In this document: positions 1 through 7,509 of the stretch, piece after piece | Layout: every line of letters starts with the position of its first letter | Position numbering within the stretch: the first letter of the stretch is position 1 | Virus record (IMG/VR): IMGVR_UViG_2695420486_000012 | Reading direction: 5' to 3' (one strand) | DNA length: 7,509 bases | DNA from: a virus | Taxonomy: Duplodnaviria; Heunggongvirae; Uroviricota; Caudoviricetes | Notes under the pieces: model-generated | What the model was told of the DNA's origin: nothing | Seen by the model: the letters and a program-made list of their open reading frames with translations, nothing else | Databases searched by the model: none | Position numbers and translations under genes: made by a program

Positions 1-3
1 ATT

Positions 4-603
4 ATGCGTAAAGTTTGTGCAGCCATTTTGTCCGCAGCCATCTGTCTGTCCGTATCCGGTGCGCCTGCATGGGCGTCTGAACATCAGTCCACACTGAGCG
101 CGGGGTATCTTCATGCCCGTACGAACGCTCCCGGCAGCGATAATCTGAACGGGATTAACGTGAAATACCGTTATGAGTTTACGGACGCGCTGGGGCTGAT
201 TACGTCCTTCAGTTATGCCAATGCTGAGGATGAGCAAAAAACGCACTACAGCGATACCCGCTGGCATGAAGATTCCGTGCGTAACCGCTGGTTCAGCGTG
301 ATGGCGGGGCCGTCTGTACGCGTGAATGAATGGTTCAGCGCGTATGCGATGGTGGGTGTGGCTTACAGCCGTGTGTCGACTTTCTCCGGGGATTATCTCC
401 GCGTAACTGACAACAAGGGGAAAACGCACGATGTGCTGACCGGAAGTGATGACGGTCGCCACAGCAACACGTCTCTGGCGTGGGGGGCTGGCGTGCAGTT
501 TAACCCGACCGAATCCGTGACCATTGACCTTGCTTATGAAGGTTCCGGTAGTGGTGACTGGCGAACGGATGCATTTATTGTTGGTATCGGATACCGTATC
601 TGA
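4..603 (+). CDS. lom: Lom outer-membrane protein (Ail/Lom/PagC beta-barrel family), prophage lysogenic-conversion gene
   Basis: ORF 4-603, 199 aa, ATG start, TGA stop at 601-603. N-terminal signal peptide MRKVCAAILSAAICLSVSGAPAWA. Near full-length match to phage lambda Lom as recalled from memory (SEHQSTLSAGYLHA...NLNGINVKYRYEF...RWHEDSVRNRWFSVMAGPSVRVNEWFSAYAM). Sits immediately upstream of stf as in lambda. Confidence 0.9.
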   Translation: MRKVCAAILSAAICLSVSGAPAWASEHQSTLSAGYLHARTNAPGSDNLNGINVKYRYEFTDALGLITSFSYANAEDEQKTHYSDTRWHEDSVRNRWFSVMAGPSVRVNEWFSAYAMVGVAYSRVSTFSGDYLRVTDNKGKTHDVLTGSDDGRHSNTSLAWGAGVQFNPTESVTIDLAYEGSGSGDWRTDAFIVGIGYRI

Positions 604-708
604 CAACAGACGCCGATTTATCTTCTGTAAATATTGTTATGATACGCAGGTTCATCCACCTTATGGGGTGAACTGCGTTTGAGGAAACGTAAAGTTACAC
701 TGTCCTGA

Positions 709-741
709 AGCCCGTGGCGTCACTGCTGCGGGCTTTTTTTA
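709..741 (+). terminator. Candidate rho-independent terminator between lom and stf
   Basis: GC-rich dyad agcccg...cgggct (709-714 / 729-734) followed by a run of seven T (734-740), located between the lom stop and the stf RBS (ggtggaaaag, then ATG at 755). The loop is rather long, so strength is uncertain. Confidence 0.45.
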
Positions 742-754
742 TTGGTGGAAAAGT

Positions 755-3511
755 ATGACAGTAAAAATTTCTGGCGTGCTTAAAGATGGCACAGGAAAAC
801 CAGTACAGAACTGCACCATTGTGCTGAAGGCCAGACGAACCAGCAGCACGATGGTGGTGAACACGGTGGCCTCTGAAAATCCGGATGAAGCCGGACGTTA
901 CAGCATGGATGTTGAGCATGGTCAGTACAGCGTCACCCTGCTGGTTGAAGGTTTTCCGCCTTCACATGCCGGGACCATTACCGTCTATGAAGGTTCCAGA
1001 CCAGGTACGCTGAATGATTTTCTCGGTGCCATGACGGAGGATGATGTCCGACCGGAGGCACTGCGCCGCTTTGAGCAGATGGTGGAAGAGGTGTCACGTA
1101 ACGCCTCCGCGGTTGCACAGAATACGGCAGCCGCGAAAAAATCAGCCAGCGAGGCGGCAACTCATGCAACCGATGCTGCAGCCTCAGCACGTGCCGCCAG
1201 CACGTCAGCCGGACAGGCCGCGTCGTCGGCTCAGTCAGCGTCTTCCAGCGCAGGAACGGCATCGACAAAGGCCCGTGAAGCAGCAAAAAGTGCTGCTGCA
1301 GAGTCATCAAAAAGCGCGGCAGCTACCAGCGCCAGTGCCGCGAAAACGTCAGAAACGAATGCCGCAGCATCACAAAAATCGGCAGCCACTTCTGCATCCA
1401 CAGCGACCACGAAGGCGTCAGAAGCTGCCACCTCGGCACGGGGTGCGGCGGCCTCAAAAGAGGCAGCGAAATCTTCAGAAACGAATGCATCATCAAGTGC
1501 CAGTAGTGCAGCTTCCTCGGCAACGGCGGCAGGAAATTCCGCGAAGGCGGCAAAAACGTCCGAGACGAACGCTAAGTCTTCTGAAACAGCAGCGGGACAG
1601 AGCGCCTCAGCTGCGGCAGGTTCAAAAACAGCGGCTGCATTATCTGCCAGTGCCGCGTCAACAAGTGCCGGGCAGGCCTCAGCCAGTGCCACCGCCGCCG
1701 GAAAATCGGCAGAAAGCGCCGCATCATCCGCTTCAACAGCCACAACGAAGGCTGGCAAAGCCACTGAGCAAGCCACTGCAGCAGCGAGGTCTGCTTCTGC
1801 AGCAAAAACCTCTGAAACAAATGCAAAGACTTCAGCAGACAATGCTGCTTCCTCTAAGGCAGCAGCCGCATCGTCAGCCAGTTCAGCGGCGTCATCGGCA
1901 TCATCTGCGTCTGCTTCAAAAGATGAGGCGACCAGACAAGCGTCAGCAGCGAAAGGTAGTGCCACGACAGCAACAACGAAAGCATCAGAGGCGGCAGGCA
2001 GTGCGACGGCTGCATCTCAGAGCAAAGTTGCTGCTGAATCCGCGGCAACGCGCGCCGAGACAGCAGCAAAACGGGCAGAGGATATTGCATCCGCCGTGGC
2101 GCTGGAGGATGCGAGCACGACGAAAAAGGGGATAGTACAGCTCAGCAGTGCGACCAACAGCACTTCCGAGTCACTGGCGGCAACGCCAAAAGCGGTTAAG
2201 GCGGTAATGGGTGAAACGAACAAGAAAGCGCCCTTAAATAGTCCTGCACTGACCGGAACGCCAACAACACCAACTGCGCGACAGGGAACGAATAATACCC
2301 AAATCGCAAGCACGGCTTTCGTTATGGCTGCGATTGCCGCCCTTGTAGATTCGTCACCTGATGCACTGAACACGCTGAACGAGCTGGCTGCGGCGCTGGG
2401 CAACGACCCGAATTTTGCGACCACCATGACTAACGCGCTTGCGGGTAAGCAACCGAAAGATGCCACCCTGACGGCGCTGGCCGGACTTACTACTGCGGCA
2501 GGCAAGTTTCCGTATTTTACGGGGAATGATGTCGCCAGCCTGGCAACCCTGACAAAAGTCGGGCGGGATATTCTTGCGAAATCGACCGTTGCCGCCGTTA
2601 TCGAATACCTCGGTTTACAGGAAACGGTAAACAAGGCTGGTAACGCCGTTCAGCGTTCCGGCGATAAAATGACCGGAGAACTGAAAATTGGCACGGTGAA
2701 TGCGCTGCGAATTTTCAATGATACCTTCGGTCTAATTTTCCGTCGTTCAGAAGATTTTCTTCATTTCATTCCGACGGCTGAAGGACAAGGCGAAAACGGT
2801 AATATCGGCCCATTAAGGCCATTCGCTATAAATCTGAGAACAGGTGCTATATCTGTCAGCCACGGGGCCAAAATTAAAGGAGGTCTAGCTATTGGAGCTA
2901 CTGATAACGCACTGGGTGAAAACTCCATTGTTCTGGGAGATAACGACACCGGATTTAGGCAAGATGGAGATGGTATTATTAGCTTCTATTCAAATGGTTC
3001 GCGCATCGGACATATTGATGAGTTAGGATTACATCTTTATAAAGATATTGAATCTAATGGCAGCAATTTTAGATTAAAAAGTAATTACCGCCACCACATT
3101 ACATTCGCCAACGAAGACGGAAGAATTCGTATGTTTTTGTGGAAAGATAACGGTGGTGATGGTGTTCATATTAATAACGGTTCAGATGGTGGTGGTGATT
3201 TCATTTTTAAAACAGATGGGGGATTTGCGCTGGGAAGTGGTGCGCAAGTTGCGTCTAGTGGCGATATTTATGGTTCAGTGTGGGAAAACAACTGGTTAAG
3301 CACATGGCTGCATAATCATGTCGTTCGGGATATTCGTCTTGGCAGCATTGAATATAAAAACGTATGGCGCGACTACGGCTTTGGCGATGCGTCAGGTTAT
3401 GTTTTAACAGCCGCAATTAACAGCAATGCGGATGATATTGTCGACACTGTTGCCAGAAGGCCAATTCAGAAATTGATTGGGGGAATATGGTACAACGTGG
3501 GGAGTGTTTAA
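755..3511 (+). CDS. stf: Side tail fibre protein: lambda-Stf-like constant N-terminal part joined to a variable C-terminal host-range domain
   Basis: ORF 755-3511, 918 aa. The N-terminal ~600 aa closely match lambda Stf as recalled ([22 protein letters not shown]..., [66 protein letters not shown]). The central part is an Ala/Ser/Thr-rich repeat region. The C-terminal ~300 aa after the conserved VIEYLGL junction differ from lambda and include a [14 protein letters not shown] motif also present in the - strand stf' segment. Confidence 0.9.
1100..2100 (+). repeat. Low-complexity Ala/Ser/Thr-rich repeat region inside stf (reiterated KTSETNA-type units)
   Basis: Protein-level repeats [12 protein letters not shown] / [11 protein letters not shown] / [15 protein letters not shown] / [15 protein letters not shown], with DNA-level reiteration of aaaacgtcagaaacgaatgc-like units near 1343, 1470, 1553 and 1805. 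This region produces long spurious ORFs in other frames on both strands. Confidence 0.7.
2598..2623. other. Candidate 26-bp invertase crossover site (pixL, gix/cix/hix-like) inside stf at the constant/variable junction
   Basis: TTATCGAATACC-TC-GGTTTACAGGAA. The right half GGTTTACAGGAA matches the gix/hix-type half-site as recalled. It encodes the conserved VIEYLGLQE junction. An inverted partner lies at 7037-7062 (22/26 identical when reverse-complemented). The central dinucleotide TC is at 2610-2611. Confidence 0.6.
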
Positions 3512-3512
3512 G

Positions 3513-4040
3513 ATGATGCACCTGAAAAATATTAAGGCCGGGAATCCGAAAACACCGGAACAATACCAGCTAACTAAAAAAGCGGGCGTGGTATGGCTCT
3601 TTTGCGAAGATGGCAAAAACTGGTATGAGGAACAAAAGAATTTTCAGCCAGACACCATAAAAATTGCTTACGATGAGAACAACATCATCGTTGCTGTCAG
3701 TAAAGACGTTTCAACTATTAATCCTGAAGGGCTAAGCATAGTTGAAGTTCCTGATATTACGGCAAATCGTCACGCAGACAATAACGGAAAATGGATGTTT
3801 CTGGATGGTAAAGTAGTAAAGAGGGAATATACAGAACAGGAACTGCAACAACAGGCCGAATCACAAAAGGCCGCATTGCTTTCCGAAGCTGAATCAGTCA
3901 TCCAGCCGCTGGAACGCGCTGTCAGGCTGAATATGGCGACGGACGAGGAACGCACACGACTGGAAGCATGGGAACGCTACAGTGTTCTGGTCAGCCGTGT
4001 GGATACGGCAAAGCCAGAATGGCCACAAAAGCCTGAGTAA
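3513..4040 (+). CDS. tfa: Tail fibre assembly protein (Tfa chaperone) paired with the expressed stf variable domain
   Basis: The ORF track calls 3477-4040, but that start overlaps stf. The preferred start is ATG ATG at 3513/3516, preceded by ggggag at 3499-3504 and overlapping the stf stop (taa 3509-3511). The C-terminus [25 protein letters not shown] resembles the lambda Tfa C-terminus (EAWKKYRVLLNRVDTS..EWP). The N-terminus is homologous to the - strand tfa' (MxHLKNIxAGNPKTxEQYQLTK...EDGKNW). Confidence 0.85.
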
Positions 4041-4045
4041 AAATT

Positions 4046-4065
4046 AAGGCCCGATATCGGGCCTT
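4046..4065. terminator. Perfect 20-bp palindrome, candidate bidirectional terminator at the convergent tfa / tfa' 3' ends
   Basis: aaggcccgatatcgggcctt is its own reverse complement. It lies 5 bp after the tfa stop, flanked by aaaatt on one side and gtttcatt on the other. Confidence 0.5.
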
Positions 4066-4068
4066 GTT

Positions 4069-4199
4069 TCATTCTGGTTGTTCGGGAAACGTTACTGGCA
4101 GGCTGGAGGTGTCTGTGGATTCGACCTTCTGCGCATAGAGCATCCACTCGGTTAATTTTTGTTTATTCTCGTCGGAAATAATGCCCAGCCGTAGCTGTG
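4069..4199 (-). pseudogene. 3' fragment (~43 codons) of a tfa'-type gene, truncated by the IS element
   Basis: The region 4069-4199 is ~94% identical to 5592-5722, the 3' end of the intact - strand tfa', offset 1523 bp. The homology stops exactly at the IS terminus at 4200. Confidence 0.6.
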
Positions 4200-4242
4200 T
4201 GAGGTGTACTGGCAATAGCGGACACTACCATTTGTTCTTTTT

Positions 4243-5061
4243 TTAAGCAGCCATCTGATGATATTTTTCCCTGAAGGCTGCCGGGGAGATATTCCCCAGA
4301 CGAGAGTGACGACGCTGACGATTGTAGAAAATCTCAATGTATTCCCGTATTACTGAGATGGCTTCATCCCGGTTATTAAAACGATAGTGGCTCAGGCTCT
4401 CATTTTTCAGCGTTCCCCAGAAGCTTTCCATCGGAGCGTTGTCGTAACAGTTACCTTTACGCGACATTGATGTTTTCAGACCAGACTGCTCCTGTATGAC
4501 CCGGTAATCGTATGCGCAGTACTGTGAACCTCGATCAGAGTGGTGGATTAGCCCGGCAGGTGGGCGCTGGCTCCTGAGCGCCATAAACAGGGCTTTACCT
4601 GTCAGCTCTTTTGTCATGCGCTCTCCCATGGCGTAGCCGACAATTTCGCACGTATAAACATCTTTGATGCCAGCGAGGTACAACCATCCCTCCTGTGTGG
4701 CAACATACGTCAGGTCCGCCACCCAGACCTGATTTGGTGCTGTAGGAGCGAACGTCTGGTTCAGCAGATTTGGCGCAACTGGCAGATTGTGGTTCGAGTT
4801 CGTAGTCGCTCTGAACTTGCGTTTCTGCTTACAGCGTAGCCTTAGCTCCTTACGAAGACGTGCCAGTCGGTCACGACCAACGATGATGCCATTCTCTGCC
4901 AGCTCCGTCTGGAGCCGCCGGGTTCCATATGTTTCGCGAGTGCGGATATGTGCCACCTTAATCTCCAGTTTTAGCCGCTCATCACTTTGTTTTCTGTCTG
5001 AGGGTTCATGCTGTACCCAGTTGTAATAACCGCTCCTGGATACACCAAATACCTGACACAT
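4243..5061 (-). CDS. IS3-family transposase OrfB (DDE integrase domain); in vivo the C-terminal part of an OrfAB fusion made by -1 frameshifting
   Basis: 272-aa ORF with rve-type motifs (HSDRGSQY, NAPMESFWGTLK, FYNRQRRHSRLG). The open frame extends upstream to 5160, in the -1 frame relative to orfA. Confidence 0.85.
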   Translation of the reverse strand: MCQVFGVSRSGYYNWVQHEPSDRKQSDERLKLEIKVAHIRTRETYGTRRLQTELAENGIIVGRDRLARLRKELRLRCKQKRKFRATTNSNHNLPVAPNLLNQTFAPTAPNQVWVADLTYVATQEGWLYLAGIKDVYTCEIVGYAMGERMTKELTGKALFMALRSQRPPAGLIHHSDRGSQYCAYDYRVIQEQSGLKTSMSRKGNCYDNAPMESFWGTLKNESLSHYRFNNRDEAISVIREYIEIFYNRQRRHSRLGNISPAAFREKYHQMAA

Positions 5062-5096
5062 CGCTTCAATGGGAAATTGTTGTCGCCATTGTTCGA

Positions 5097-5399
5097 TTAA
5101 CGCGTATTTTTCAGCGACTCCTGTGCAAAATACGCTGTTGCTTTTTTTAATATATCTCGCTCAAGGCGAGCTTCATTTAACGCCTTACGCAGTTGCAGAA
5201 TTTCAGATTCCAGTTCAGCCACCGTGCGGGAACCAGGAGTACCGAGCCCTTTTCTGGCGGCGGTAACCCATTGTCCTAAAGTGCCTTCAGGAAGAGATAA
5301 TCGGGAAGCGCCTTCACTGATCGAAAGTTGATTTTCAAGAACCGTTCTGACAGCTTCGGCTTTGAACTCTTTAGAGTAACGTTGGGTTTTTCTGCTCAT
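5097..5399 (-). CDS. IS3-family transposase OrfA (helix-turn-helix / leucine-zipper DNA-binding subunit)
   Basis: 100-aa [23 protein letters not shown]...[15 protein letters not shown]. aggag Shine-Dalgarno (reverse complement of 5403-5407) upstream of ATG (reverse complement of 5397-5399). Ends just past the slippery heptamer. Confidence 0.85.
5142..5148 (-). other. Programmed -1 ribosomal frameshift site (A AAA AAA G) joining orfA to orfB
   Basis: A run of seven T on the + strand (5142-5148) is A7 followed by G on the coding strand. The orfA frame reads ILKKAT. The -1 frame continues [37 protein letters not shown] into OrfB. Confidence 0.55.
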
Positions 5400-5464
5400 T
5401 ATTAGCTCCTTCTGATGCCATTCTATTTCAGGAAGGAGTGTCCGTTAAACTCAGGCTACCTCAA

Positions 5465-5563
5465 GACGAGGAACGCACACGACTGGAAGCATGGGAACGC
5501 TACAGTGTTCTGGTCAGCCGTGTGGATACGGCAAATCCTGAATGGCCACAAAAGCCTGAATAA
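5465..5563 (+). pseudogene. 3' fragment (32 codons plus stop) of a tfa gene abutting the IS element
   Basis: Encodes [32 protein letters not shown], 96/100 nt identical to tfa 3942-4040. The homology begins immediately at the IS boundary (5464/5465). Confidence 0.65.
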
Positions 5564-5568
5564 AAATT

Positions 5569-5588
5569 AAGGCCCGATAGCGGGCCTT
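5569..5588. terminator. Second copy of the palindromic bidirectional terminator (one mismatch in the loop)
   Basis: aaggcccgatagcgggcctt. Lies between the tfa 3' fragment and the stop of tfa' (reverse complement of 5592-5594). Confidence 0.5.
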
Positions 5589-5591
5589 CTC

Positions 5592-6125
5592 TCATTCTGG
5601 TTGTTCGGGAAACGTTACTGGCAGGCTGGAGGTGTCTGTGGATTCAACCTTCTGCGCATAGAGCATCCACTCGGTTAATTTTTGTTTATTCTCATCGGAA
5701 ATGATGCCCAGCTGTAGCTGAGAGTCCCACAGCTGGGTTTTATCCCTGACGAGCTGCAGCAGGCTCTGCTTTTCATTTTCCGCTTGTTGCCTTTGCTCTT
5801 CCTCGGTATAAGTTCGCTTTATCACCGCACCATCTTTGAACATCCAGTTGCCCGAAATATCAGCCCGGCGATTTGCTGTAATATCAGGCAACTCAACGAC
5901 ACTTAAACCTTCTGGATTAATTGCTGATACATCCTTGTCTATAGCAATAATTATTCCCTCAACTGTGTAAGCCAGTTTTATTGTATCCTCCTGAAAGTTT
6001 TTTAATTCCTCATGCCAATTTTTTCCATCTTCGGACCATAACCAGATAACATCAAAATTCTTTGTTAGCTGGTATTGTTCAACGGTTTTTGGATTACCTG
6101 CGACAATGTTTTTTAAATGCTGCAT
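5592..6125 (-). CDS. tfa: Tail fibre assembly protein of the alternative (silent-orientation) cassette
   Basis: 177-aa [40 protein letters not shown]... The N-terminal half is homologous to + strand Tfa and the C-terminal half diverges. The ATG lies 2 nt after the taa that ends the stf' frame, the same arrangement as stf/tfa on the + strand. Confidence 0.85.
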
Positions 6126-6127
6126 GA

Positions 6128-7048
6128 TTATACCTGCGATACGTTATACCATGTTCCGTTAATTAACTTTTGTATTGGTCTGAATACTGCCGGATCATCA
6201 CCATCGACTTCACCGATAATACCAAGCCCCGTGATTACATGGCCTGATTTTTCATACATCACGCCTTTCTTCATGGTCTAAACAACTCGTGTGCCAAGTC
6301 TGACATCTCTCACATAGCGGGAATCAAAGTTACCGTAATCCGAGGGATTAACACGTCCCGTAATATTTATGGTTTTATTACTTTGAATGCTTCCGGAGAC
6401 AAAGCGCATAACATGGACGTTATTAGCATAAACATCCAGATTACCATCGCCTTTTTGTTTAAAGCCCGTGTCATTATCACCCAATACAATCGAATTACCG
6501 CCAAGAGCACTGGATGTTCCGATACCCAGTGCACCATTCAGTTGACCACCAGATAACGGCAGTGCACCAACATCTCCTGCTGAAGGTTTTCTGGTGGTGT
6601 AAAATTCGGACCAGTCGGCTTCAAAACCATAACCATCACGGGCTGAACGATAAAAAATACCGCCATTTTTATAATTAATCCGAAACTGAGCTGCAGGACA
6701 ACTTCCTTCTCCCATATAAAAATGAATAATTAACGTTGATGCACCACTAATAGTTGCGTTATAGGCTCCGCTACTCCAGTTCCATCCAACTGCTTTATCA
6801 TTCGCAACGGTGCTTCCTGTTTTCCCTAAGGCAAACGCACCAACATGACTTGCTTTTAATGTGATATCGGAGGAACCATCAAAAGCCACATTGCTTATTT
6901 TCCTGGCAGTTTTTAATTTTGCAGCTGTAGAAGCATTGCCGGATAGTTCACCAGAAAGGCCACCGCTGAATGTTTGTCGATTAGTCCAGGTATTCGCTGT
7001 ACTGAGTAACGGTATTTTCTCCCCGCTTGTGCCGAGTTCTCGTAAACC
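6128..7048 (-). pseudogene. Alternative tail-fibre C-terminal variable segment (stf', promoterless and lacking its own N-terminus), interrupted by an in-frame TAG
   Basis: The - strand frame is open from the pixR crossover site (7048) to a TAG at 6278-6280 (GLRELGTSGEKIPLLSTANTWTNRQTFSGGLSGELSG...[20 protein letters not shown]...YVRDVRLGTRVV*). The same frame then continues for 49 codons (TMKKGVMYEKSG...[20 protein letters not shown]) to a taa at 6128-6130. That tail is homologous to the Stf C-terminus ...[19 protein letters not shown]. The frame would be continuous with the stf constant part after inversion at pixL/pixR. Confidence 0.65.
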
Positions 7049-7062
7049 GAGGTTTTAGATAA
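7037..7062. other. Candidate 26-bp invertase crossover site (pixR), inverted relative to pixL
   Basis: TTCTCGTAAACC-GA-GGTTTTAGATAA, about 23/26 match to the gix-type consensus TTCCTGTAAACCGAGGTTTTGGATAA as recalled. Located ~55 bp upstream of the pin start, as in Gin/Cin/Pin systems. Confidence 0.6.
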
Positions 7063-7116
7063 TGGCGGTTTCTGGCCTGCATGGCATGATTTGTGCTTTT
7101 GGACGGGAGATTCAGC

Positions 7117-7353
7117 GTGCTGATTGGCTATGTAAGGGTATCAACAAATGACCAGAATACAGACCTGCAACGAAACGCTCTTGTTTGTGCAGGATATGAA
7201 CAAATATTTGAAGATAAATTAAGCGGAACAAGGACAGGCCGACCTGGATTAAAACGTGCTTTAAAGCGCCTTCAAAAAGGTGACGCACTGGTTGTCTGAA
7301 AACTGGACTGACTGGGTCACTGTATGCGGCATCTTGTCGTGCTGGTGGTGGAA
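7117..7353 (+). pseudogene. pin: Pin/Gin/Cin/Hin-family serine DNA invertase, 5' portion only; in-frame TGA after codon 60, second TGA four codons later, 3' two-thirds missing
   Basis: GTG at 7117 preceded by gggaga (7104-7109). Encodes MLIGYVRVSTNDQNTDLQRNALVCAGYEQIFEDKLSGTRTGRPGLKRALKRLQKGDALVV, which matches the invertase N-terminus including the catalytic Ser in YVRVSTNDQ. Then TGA (7297-7299) where the family has Trp. The same frame reads KLD*LGHCMRHLVVLVVE, recognisably the VVWKLDRLGRSMKHLISLVGE region. The resolvase-fold remainder and the C-terminal HTH are absent. Confidence 0.75.
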
Positions 7354-7443
7354 GCCTAGAAAAAGTATCGGGTGTTGCTGAACCGTGTTGATACATCAAC
7401 TGCACCTGATATTGAGTGGCCTACGAACCCTGTCAGGGAGTAA
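7354..7443 (+). pseudogene. Lambda-Tfa-like 3' fragment fused in frame to the pin remnant, with a TAG at the conserved Trp position
   Basis: Frame reads [28 protein letters not shown], versus lambda Tfa C-terminus [24 protein letters not shown] as recalled. TAG at 7357-7359, final taa at 7441-7443. Confidence 0.6.
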
Positions 7444-7457
7444 TCATTGGGATTATG

Positions 7458-7490
7458 CCGCAGCACGTCTTAAGCAAGAACGTGCTGCGG
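7458..7490 (+). terminator. Stem-loop (11-bp perfect stem) downstream of the tfa-like fragment; possible terminator
   Basis: ccgcagcacgt (7458-7468) pairs with acgtgctgcgg (7480-7490) across an 11-nt loop. A T-run (tatttttt, 7499-7506) follows after an 8-nt spacer, so terminator function is uncertain. Confidence 0.35.
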
Positions 7491-7509
7491 TTGGATGCTA
7501 TTTTTTCCC

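Follow-up and report, generated by a model that had tools for sequence, protein, structure and literature searches.

The 7509-base window analysed here (IMG/VR virus record IMGVR_UViG_2695420486_000012) is an entire draft contig, deposited as CXEB01000188.1 in assembly GCA_001255275.1 (L015 among the loci, labelled with L numbers, that are compared below), and it is the tail-fibre end of a defective lambdoid prophage that carries an invertible cassette of the bacteriophage Mu G-segment type. The window and the public record differ at a single position, 5464, which is A in the former and N in CXEB01000188.1. The 918-amino-acid (aa) side-tail-fibre protein (Stf) encoded here is identical in Shigella sonnei 53G (HE616528.1; PMC5447701) and in two other complete genomes. 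Relative to 53G the window is 100% identical from 5464 to its end, is identical from 1 to 3937 except for one single nucleotide polymorphism (SNP) at 2593, and has all 13 of its remaining differences within 3938–4198; from this match the source organism is probably S. sonnei. PMC5447701, which gives HE616528.1 as S. sonnei 53G, counts neighbouring CX.. accessions among the S. sonnei drafts of Holt 2012.

The genes of the window are arranged as follows. The lom gene (4–603, + strand) encodes an Ail/Lom outer-membrane protein (Pfam PF06316 Ail_Lom, E = 2e-125) and lies upstream of stf as in lambda, with a terminator at 707–736 between the two. The stf gene (755–3511, +) begins with a constant part (755–2610, +; codons 1–619) that has a PF08400 phage_tail_N domain at residues 1–134 (E = 4e-69), ends in ...VIEYL and is 96% identical to the constant part of the corresponding gene in two E. 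coli prophages (L001 and L002). It then continues into variable segment V1 (2612–3511, +), which supplies the 299 C-terminal Stf residues that are expressed in the window's orientation (PF20744 gp37_trimer at Stf residues 782–847), and it is followed by tfa (3513–4040, +; PF02413 Caudo_TAP, E = 2e-36), which encodes the tail-fibre assembly chaperone for V1, a protein 82% identical to Mu U. Convergent with these genes are tfa' (5592–6125, − strand; Caudo_TAP, E = 5e-34), whose product, the chaperone for V2, is 85% identical to Mu U', and variable segment V2 (6128–7048, −; PF12604 gp37_C), a silent, promoterless alternative Stf C-terminus. There are therefore two in-frame alternative fibre C-termini, each with its own chaperone gene, though V2 carries an amber codon (6278–6280). 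Palindromic terminators lie between the convergent tfa genes at 4045–4066 and 5569–5588; they consist of a perfect, GC-rich palindrome, AAGGCCCGATATCGGGCCTT, and a version of it that differs at one base, their hairpins score as terminators on both strands, and Mu has the native allele too, between U and U'. An IS600 element, described below, separates these two terminators, each of which lies in one arm of a 256-bp repeat.

The similarity of the two variable segments to Mu tail-fibre proteins is uneven. Residues 71–162 of V2 are 84% identical to Mu S'; the gene order that a first-pass annotation of this DNA gave, tfa on the plus strand and then tfa' and V2 on the minus strand, holds. V1 resembles Mu S and S' only in its first 24 and last ~65 residues, and over its C-terminal 67 residues the identity to Mu S' is 42%. 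The same annotation described the locus as a Gin/Pin-family invertible cassette, of a known class, embedded in a lambdoid lom-stf-tfa module, and the PF06316, PF08400 and PF02413 matches, the presence of gene J upstream in 53G and the Mu-like crossover sites (below) agree with that description. Upstream of the cassette in 53G lies a lambdoid tail operon (tape measure, M, L, K, I and J), in which J, the gene for gpJ, is broken into two or three open reading frames (ORFs), as it also is in related genomes (5731–9182 in L006); because J is split into several ORFs we take the prophage to be defective.

The segment that holds V1, the two tfa genes and V2 is bracketed by two 26-bp sites in inverted orientation that have the same central dinucleotide, TC. 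The left site (2598–2623, +; TTATCGAATACC TC GGTTTACAGGAA) is inside the stf reading frame at the junction of the constant and variable parts, and the right site (7037–7062, −; TTATCTAAAACC TC GGTTTACGAGAA) is just upstream of the remnant of a serine invertase gene. A repeat search of the window found the inverted repeat to extend somewhat beyond the sites, to 2592 on the left and 7068 on the right, giving 32-nt arms (2592–2623 and 7037–7068) that are 84% complementary. As a query for invertase sites we used Mu gix, taken from the annotated G-segment boundaries of NC_000929, where both Mu sites are TTATCCAAAACC TC GGTTTACAGGAA; the left site matches it at 24 of 26 positions and the right site, read on the minus strand, at 23 of 26. 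A search of the window that allowed up to three mismatches returned exactly these two sites, and none of 200 dinucleotide-preserving shuffles of the window gave a match. Both sites had been placed correctly in the first-pass annotation, including the position of the left one at the constant/variable junction of stf, and their likeness to characterised invertase sites is plain from the Mu gix matches. Each of the four half-sites can be told from its counterpart: the outer half-site is TTATCGAATACC on the stf side (C) and TTATCTAAAACC on the invertase side (I), and the inner half-site is GGTTTACAGGAA next to V1 and GGTTTACGAGAA next to V2, so the two sites of the window can be written C-V1 and I-V2.

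These half-site differences allow past exchanges to be read from other genomes. The window, 53G and E. coli O121 all have the combination C-V1 and I-V2, and two other assemblies, L009 and L012, have C-V2 and I-V1, which are the exact reciprocal products of an exchange at the central TC, together with the same Stf sequence and the same V2 amber allele. In L002 the expressed junction is C-V2, and in L016 the truncated invertase gene (delta-gin) is joined to V1; V1 adjoins the invertase remnant in L009, L012 and L016, and in L002, L009 and L012 the stf constant part runs in frame into V2. The crossover at the central TC that had been proposed from the window by itself is thus where outer and inner half-sites reassort in these assemblies. 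The accompanying claim that the recombinant reading frame stays open is borne out as well: read from the site, the minus strand of 6128–7048 gives GLRELGTSGEKIPLL..., and a natural, intact 934-aa coding sequence of this kind is present in E. coli NZ_OZ040035. In L009 a single N-free stretch (9247–15877) begins and ends with the stf constant part, the two copies lying in opposite orientations and enclosing the whole segment; such a stretch, with both C-V1 and C-V2 present, is the signature of an assembler path through a culture of mixed orientation.

The same polymorphism is seen in complete E. coli genomes. A probe for the flipped right junction, delta-gin-V1, was constructed in silico from the sequence of E. 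coli EC958 so as to include a part that is specific to the truncated invertase gene; the flipped junction was found in 143 complete E. coli genomes (at least 80% probe coverage) and the unflipped one in 239. In the genomes listed, among them sequence type 131 (ST131) strains such as JJ1886, the flipped probe is matched at 100% identity over its full length. Orientation also differs between similarly named isolates (4/0 versus 4/1-1 and 4/4; U12A versus U13A–U15A; S2 versus S3, S4, S9 and S14), whose relatedness within each set is taken from their names only. Forde et al. 2014 (PMC4134206) found that PacBio reads of EC958 prophage Phi4 assembled into contigs of alternative orientation, described the Phi4 invertase as "severely truncated", and proposed that inversion occurs in trans, with the invertase of prophage Phi1 as the trans-acting enzyme. 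Both orientations, with exchange at the central dinucleotide, are thus present at the same locus in other genomes (L009, L012, L002, L016, E. coli and EC958).

Could such variants arise by homologous recombination or gene conversion among similar tail-fibre cassettes rather than by site-specific inversion? V1 and tfa are near-identical in lambdoid and P2-like cassettes, alleles of the site flanks have been exchanged between loci, and two alleles of the tfa/tfa' junction move between cassettes, all of which would be expected from such recombination. However, the inverted arms share only ~32 nt at 84% identity, which is too little for efficient RecA-dependent inversion, the central TC is the exact point at which the half-site polymorphisms reassort, and the flipped and unflipped forms in ST131 are otherwise 100% identical over 699 nt; we consider homologous exchange a very improbable source of the orientation variants. 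The SNP at 2593, which is 5 nt outside the left crossover site, is a separate observation: the window's allele, C, also adjoins the tail-fibre site of P2-like cassettes (L009, L012 and L016), and it could have come from localized conversion at crossover sites or from an exchange between two cassettes.

The gene beside the right site had been called a serine invertase gene in the first-pass annotation. Its position and its gin-like N-terminus are as described there, but it is a pseudogene that retains the N-terminal third of a serine recombinase and nothing more. The remnant (delta-gin; 7117–7299, +) has a GTG start and 60 codons, including the catalytic Ser9 context VRVSTNDQ, and then, at codon 61, a TGA where intact relatives of 184–195 aa have TGG (Trp61); a second TGA follows four codons on (7309–7311), and the 3' part of the gene is deleted. 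Its 60 residues are 95% identical to residues 1–60 of Mu Gin, and the DNA is identical at 175 of 180 nt (5 mismatches, 97%). In a Pfam search its Resolvase match (PF00239) covers profile positions 2–69 of 145, and HTH_7 gave no match. The stretch 7297–7345 is short, degenerate and invertase-like, and it is nearer to e14 pinE than to Mu gin, so that the remnant is a mosaic. Joined to the truncated gene is the 3' remnant of another, third tfa gene (7360–7443, +; ending in ...VDTSTAPDIEWPTNPVRE and a stop codon), which is annotated as "tail fiber assembly protein, missing N-terminus" at the equivalent spot in L001, L002 and L018. The truncation is old, because E. coli O121, NZ_OZ040035 and the ST131 strain EC958 have it too at the homologous locus, where the gene is annotated as "recombinase family protein, incomplete".

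In the resolvase/invertase fold the Gin E-helix and DNA-binding domain lie beyond residue 100 (PMC3575834), and because both are missing here the product of the remnant can neither bind nor recombine DNA. The idea that the ORF at 7117 encodes a working invertase, and hence that the locus is an autonomous switch, could draw on the close N-terminal match to Gin with its Ser9 motif and on the canonical location beside the right site; it is refuted by the two TGA codons, the absence of the E-helix and HTH_7 domain, and the tfa fragment that takes their place downstream, and we give it essentially no chance. With the invertase gene dead, the switch is not autonomous.

A second requirement for inversion may still be present in the remnant. 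DNA invertases of this class depend on an enhancer in cis to which Fis is bound (PMC3798978); Mu has three Fis sites inside the coding region of gin, ~550 bp upstream of the start of mom (PMC3378877). By homology to Mu, the Fis-dependent recombinational enhancer (sis) would be located at about 7162–7224, inside the retained 5' part of the invertase gene, and since gin nt 1–180 are kept with so few mismatches to Mu the enhancer is very probably retained; its retention would explain why an orphan cassette still flips. Candidate 15-bp G-N13-C cores spaced 48 bp apart (gene nt 46–60 and 94–108) are identical to those in Mu, in a scan that is too permissive to discriminate true Fis sites.

Taken together, these features make it very likely, in our judgement, that the window holds an orphan Mu-type invertible cassette that can be flipped only in trans, by an invertase encoded elsewhere. 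The mechanism would be as follows: two inverted gix-type sites bracket a plus-strand module (V1 and tfa) and a minus-strand module (V2 and tfa'); a Gin/Pin-family serine invertase would cleave both sites, with a stagger, at their central TC and rotate the strands; and the segment would flip so that the stf constant part becomes fused in frame either to V1, the state of the window, or to V2. Loss of its own invertase, with both sites and the 5' stretch of the gene (which holds the Fis enhancer in Mu) kept, would leave the cassette as an orphan substrate, and a compatible invertase elsewhere in the genome would flip it in trans, perhaps still in the present isolate.

Several observations weigh against this interpretation. 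The contig of this isolate shows one orientation only, and 53G, L008 and L011, all three complete genomes with the locus that were examined, share that orientation. For the S. sonnei-type locus, the assemblies that point to flipping are draft scaffolds joined through single Ns. The two sites are 4.4 kb apart, not 2.9 kb, if the IS600 element and the repeat are real, and the position given for the enhancer comes from homology and from a loose coordinate in the literature, with a Fis-core scan that does not discriminate. The uniform orientation of the window and the three complete genomes would also be expected if the cassette were a frozen relic, in which loss of the invertase locked the V1 orientation in S. 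sonnei and the recombinants seen elsewhere are old or belong to other lineages. The truncated invertase, the split gpJ gene of a defective prophage, and the V2 amber codon, fixed in the S. sonnei-type loci examined as expected if V2 were never expressed, all suit a locked state. Against it, L009 and L012 carry the same TAG allele and yet have C-V2 and I-V1, L009 even has both junction types in one N-free stretch, and the same truncated locus flips in ST131. We think a frozen relic unlikely on this evidence, and prefer an orphan cassette flipped in trans.

If the orphan cassette is flipped in trans, which enzyme might act on it? An intact 195-aa invertase, with both Resolvase and HTH_7 domains, is encoded in a P2-like prophage, where it adjoins sites that are one base off Mu gix. 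It is on the same contigs as the cassette in L007 and L009, and it is also present in L012 and L014; it would be the obvious candidate for flipping in trans in assemblies that carry the locus. A homologue search for a compatible invertase in 53G or in the isolate did not return the exact 195-aa protein. The P2-like prophage has a gix-type invertible cassette of its own (L007 16236–16903; L009 16749–21473; L012 4257–7026; L013; L014), which can hold V1 and tfa near-identical to those of the window, and in several draft contigs the two cassettes are linked across a gap of a single N. A further Gin-family invertase, of 190 aa (6001–6573 in L019), is found in a Mu-like prophage in L019–L022, one source of which is named S. 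sonnei; it adjoins a small tail-fibre cassette in which the orientation of tfa varies between contigs, and it is upstream of com/mom homologues. The invertase match that bears an S. sonnei name, P0094, proved to belong to a Mu-like prophage on other contigs.

The amber codon in V2, which the first-pass annotation passed over, bears on what flipping would accomplish. The codon at 6278–6280 (minus strand) is TAG in nearly all of the S. sonnei-type loci examined and CAG (Gln) in E. coli L002 and L010, and as a consequence the flipped fibre would be without its last 49 residues. Because the flipped fibre is truncated in this way and the prophage is defective, the cassette is a flipping relic and not a working host-range device.

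Between tfa and tfa' the window contains a second structure that was passed over earlier. An IS600 element of the IS3 family (4200–5463, −; 1264 bp), with orfA at 5097–5399, orfB at 4243–5061 and terminal inverted repeats at 4200–4226 and 5437–5463, is flanked by a 256-bp direct repeat whose two arms (3942–4197 and 5465–5720) are 96% identical. The element is complete, is 99.9% identical to elements annotated as "IS3-like element IS600 family transposase", and has Pfam HTH_Tnp_1 and rve matches. The right arm (5465–5720), which includes the terminator at 5569–5588, is the native tfa/tfa' junction and is identical to 53G. The left arm lies in a variant tfa/tfa' junction (3938–4199) made up of a tfa 3' end, the terminator at 4045–4066 and a tfa' 3' end, and its allele is found in other cassettes of the same assembly and of related ones, including that of the P2-like prophage (L012–L014, L016 and L017).

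How did this structure arise? IS600 creates a target-site duplication of 3 bp. The element is complete, but no duplication is present at its ends (the flanks are GTG and AGA), the 256-bp flanking repeat is imperfect, and its left copy is of a different allele; a simple IS600 insertion is rejected on these grounds. An IS at this position is absent from the complete S. sonnei genomes examined, the N at 5464 in the public record directly follows the end of the IS, and sister drafts show the same kind of single-N join at IS600 ends as well as at other implausible adjacencies. We think it somewhat likelier that scaffolding joined two cassettes with an identical V1-tfa repeat in common than that two IS600 copies recombined to give a real structure. 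In either case both tfa genes are intact and the two crossover sites are unaffected. A 51-aa ORF that spans the IS600 junction was not on record in a protein search.

Elsewhere in the window, the stf constant part is rich in Ala, Ser and Thr between 1100 and 2050, a region made up of two families of degenerate repeats, D2 and D3, with units of 33 and 26 nt. We take the long ORFs over 978–2634, both antisense and out of frame, to be by-products of the Ala/Ser-rich repeats of stf.

Invertible tail-fibre switches have been a textbook class since the 1980s. The present system is of that known kind, and a 2014 paper on E. coli ST131 had already reported this locus, its sites identical to those here and its invertase truncated, and had proposed that it inverts in trans. 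In EC958 Phi4 both 26-bp sites (Phi4_5prime on the left and Phi4_3prime on the right in Table 3 of PMC4134206) are identical to those of the window, including the flanking ccgccg/ccgcca, and their coordinates match L018; Phi4 also has the same lom-stf-tfa/tfa'-stf' layout, with the same truncated invertase gene and tfa remnant behind it. The window differs from EC958 in that its host sequence matches S. sonnei 53G, in its V2 amber codon, and in having IS600 and the 256-bp repeat, whereas EC958 has ISEc12 in lom. The sister locus of E. coli O121 is 98.8% identical over window positions 6294–7509; the tfa and tfa' alleles of the window are Mu-like, however, and only about 72–80% identical to those of O121. 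What this copy adds to the published locus is the amber codon in the silent tip and the doubtful IS600 structure.

In Mu, too, the two modules converge and the invertase gene stands outside the segment. At the DNA level, the stretch from the right site through the spacer and ~190 nt into the recombinase gene is 92.9% identical to Mu gixR-gin, compared with 74.6% for e14 pinE. The window differs from Mu, a transposable phage, in that its constant part is a lambdoid Stf (619 residues, with lom before it), its V1 is largely unrelated to Mu S, its invertase is truncated, and the element it belongs to is a defective prophage. The e14 P segment of E. coli K-12, with its invertase PinE, is of the same class, an invertible stf/tfa segment beside a serine invertase in a defective prophage, but PinE is intact. 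The e14 crossover site, CTCTCGAAAACCTTGGTTTGGGAGAA, is off the window sites at more than 7 of 26 positions, and pinE is 75% identical to the remnant over the first 60 residues. StfP, StfE and TfaE gave no match at E ≤ 1e-3, and TfaP gave one weak match, of 26% identity, to tfa'. We therefore reject e14 as the closest relative, there being no e14 site within 7 mismatches and only the above DNA identity over the 5' end of the invertase gene. The P1 C segment with Cin and the S. boydii B segment with PinB belong to the same family according to the Sandmeier 1994 consensus in Table 3 of PMC4134206, a likeness that is drawn here from the literature (Sandmeier 1994; Tominaga 1991).

The cassette has practical consequences for genome analysis. 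It yields alternative-orientation or chimeric contigs in short-read assemblies, of which the IS600/repeat structure may be one, and the "recombinase" and "tail fiber" fragments annotated at such loci are pseudogenes.

A wider possibility, which we regard as doubtful but not far-fetched, is that a single trans-acting invertase acts on four or more chromosomal gix-type sites, so that the orphan and P2-like cassettes are joined in one network. The hints are the near-identity of V1 and tfa in the lambdoid and P2-like cassettes, the swapping of site-flank alleles between the two invertase loci (the 2593 SNP matches the P2-like site allele), and the matching of a probe that spans the truncated locus to ~4100 of 5426 E. 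coli genomes. If such a network is real, the orphan would flip, tail-fibre tips would be exchanged between unrelated prophages, and the chromosome between them would possibly be inverted; cassettes with truncated invertases would then persist across E. coli and Shigella as a store of receptor-binding modules on which resident or incoming phages could draw. More generally, a switch can outlast its own recombinase so long as its crossover sites, and presumably the enhancer too, are kept and some other part of the genome supplies a compatible enzyme.

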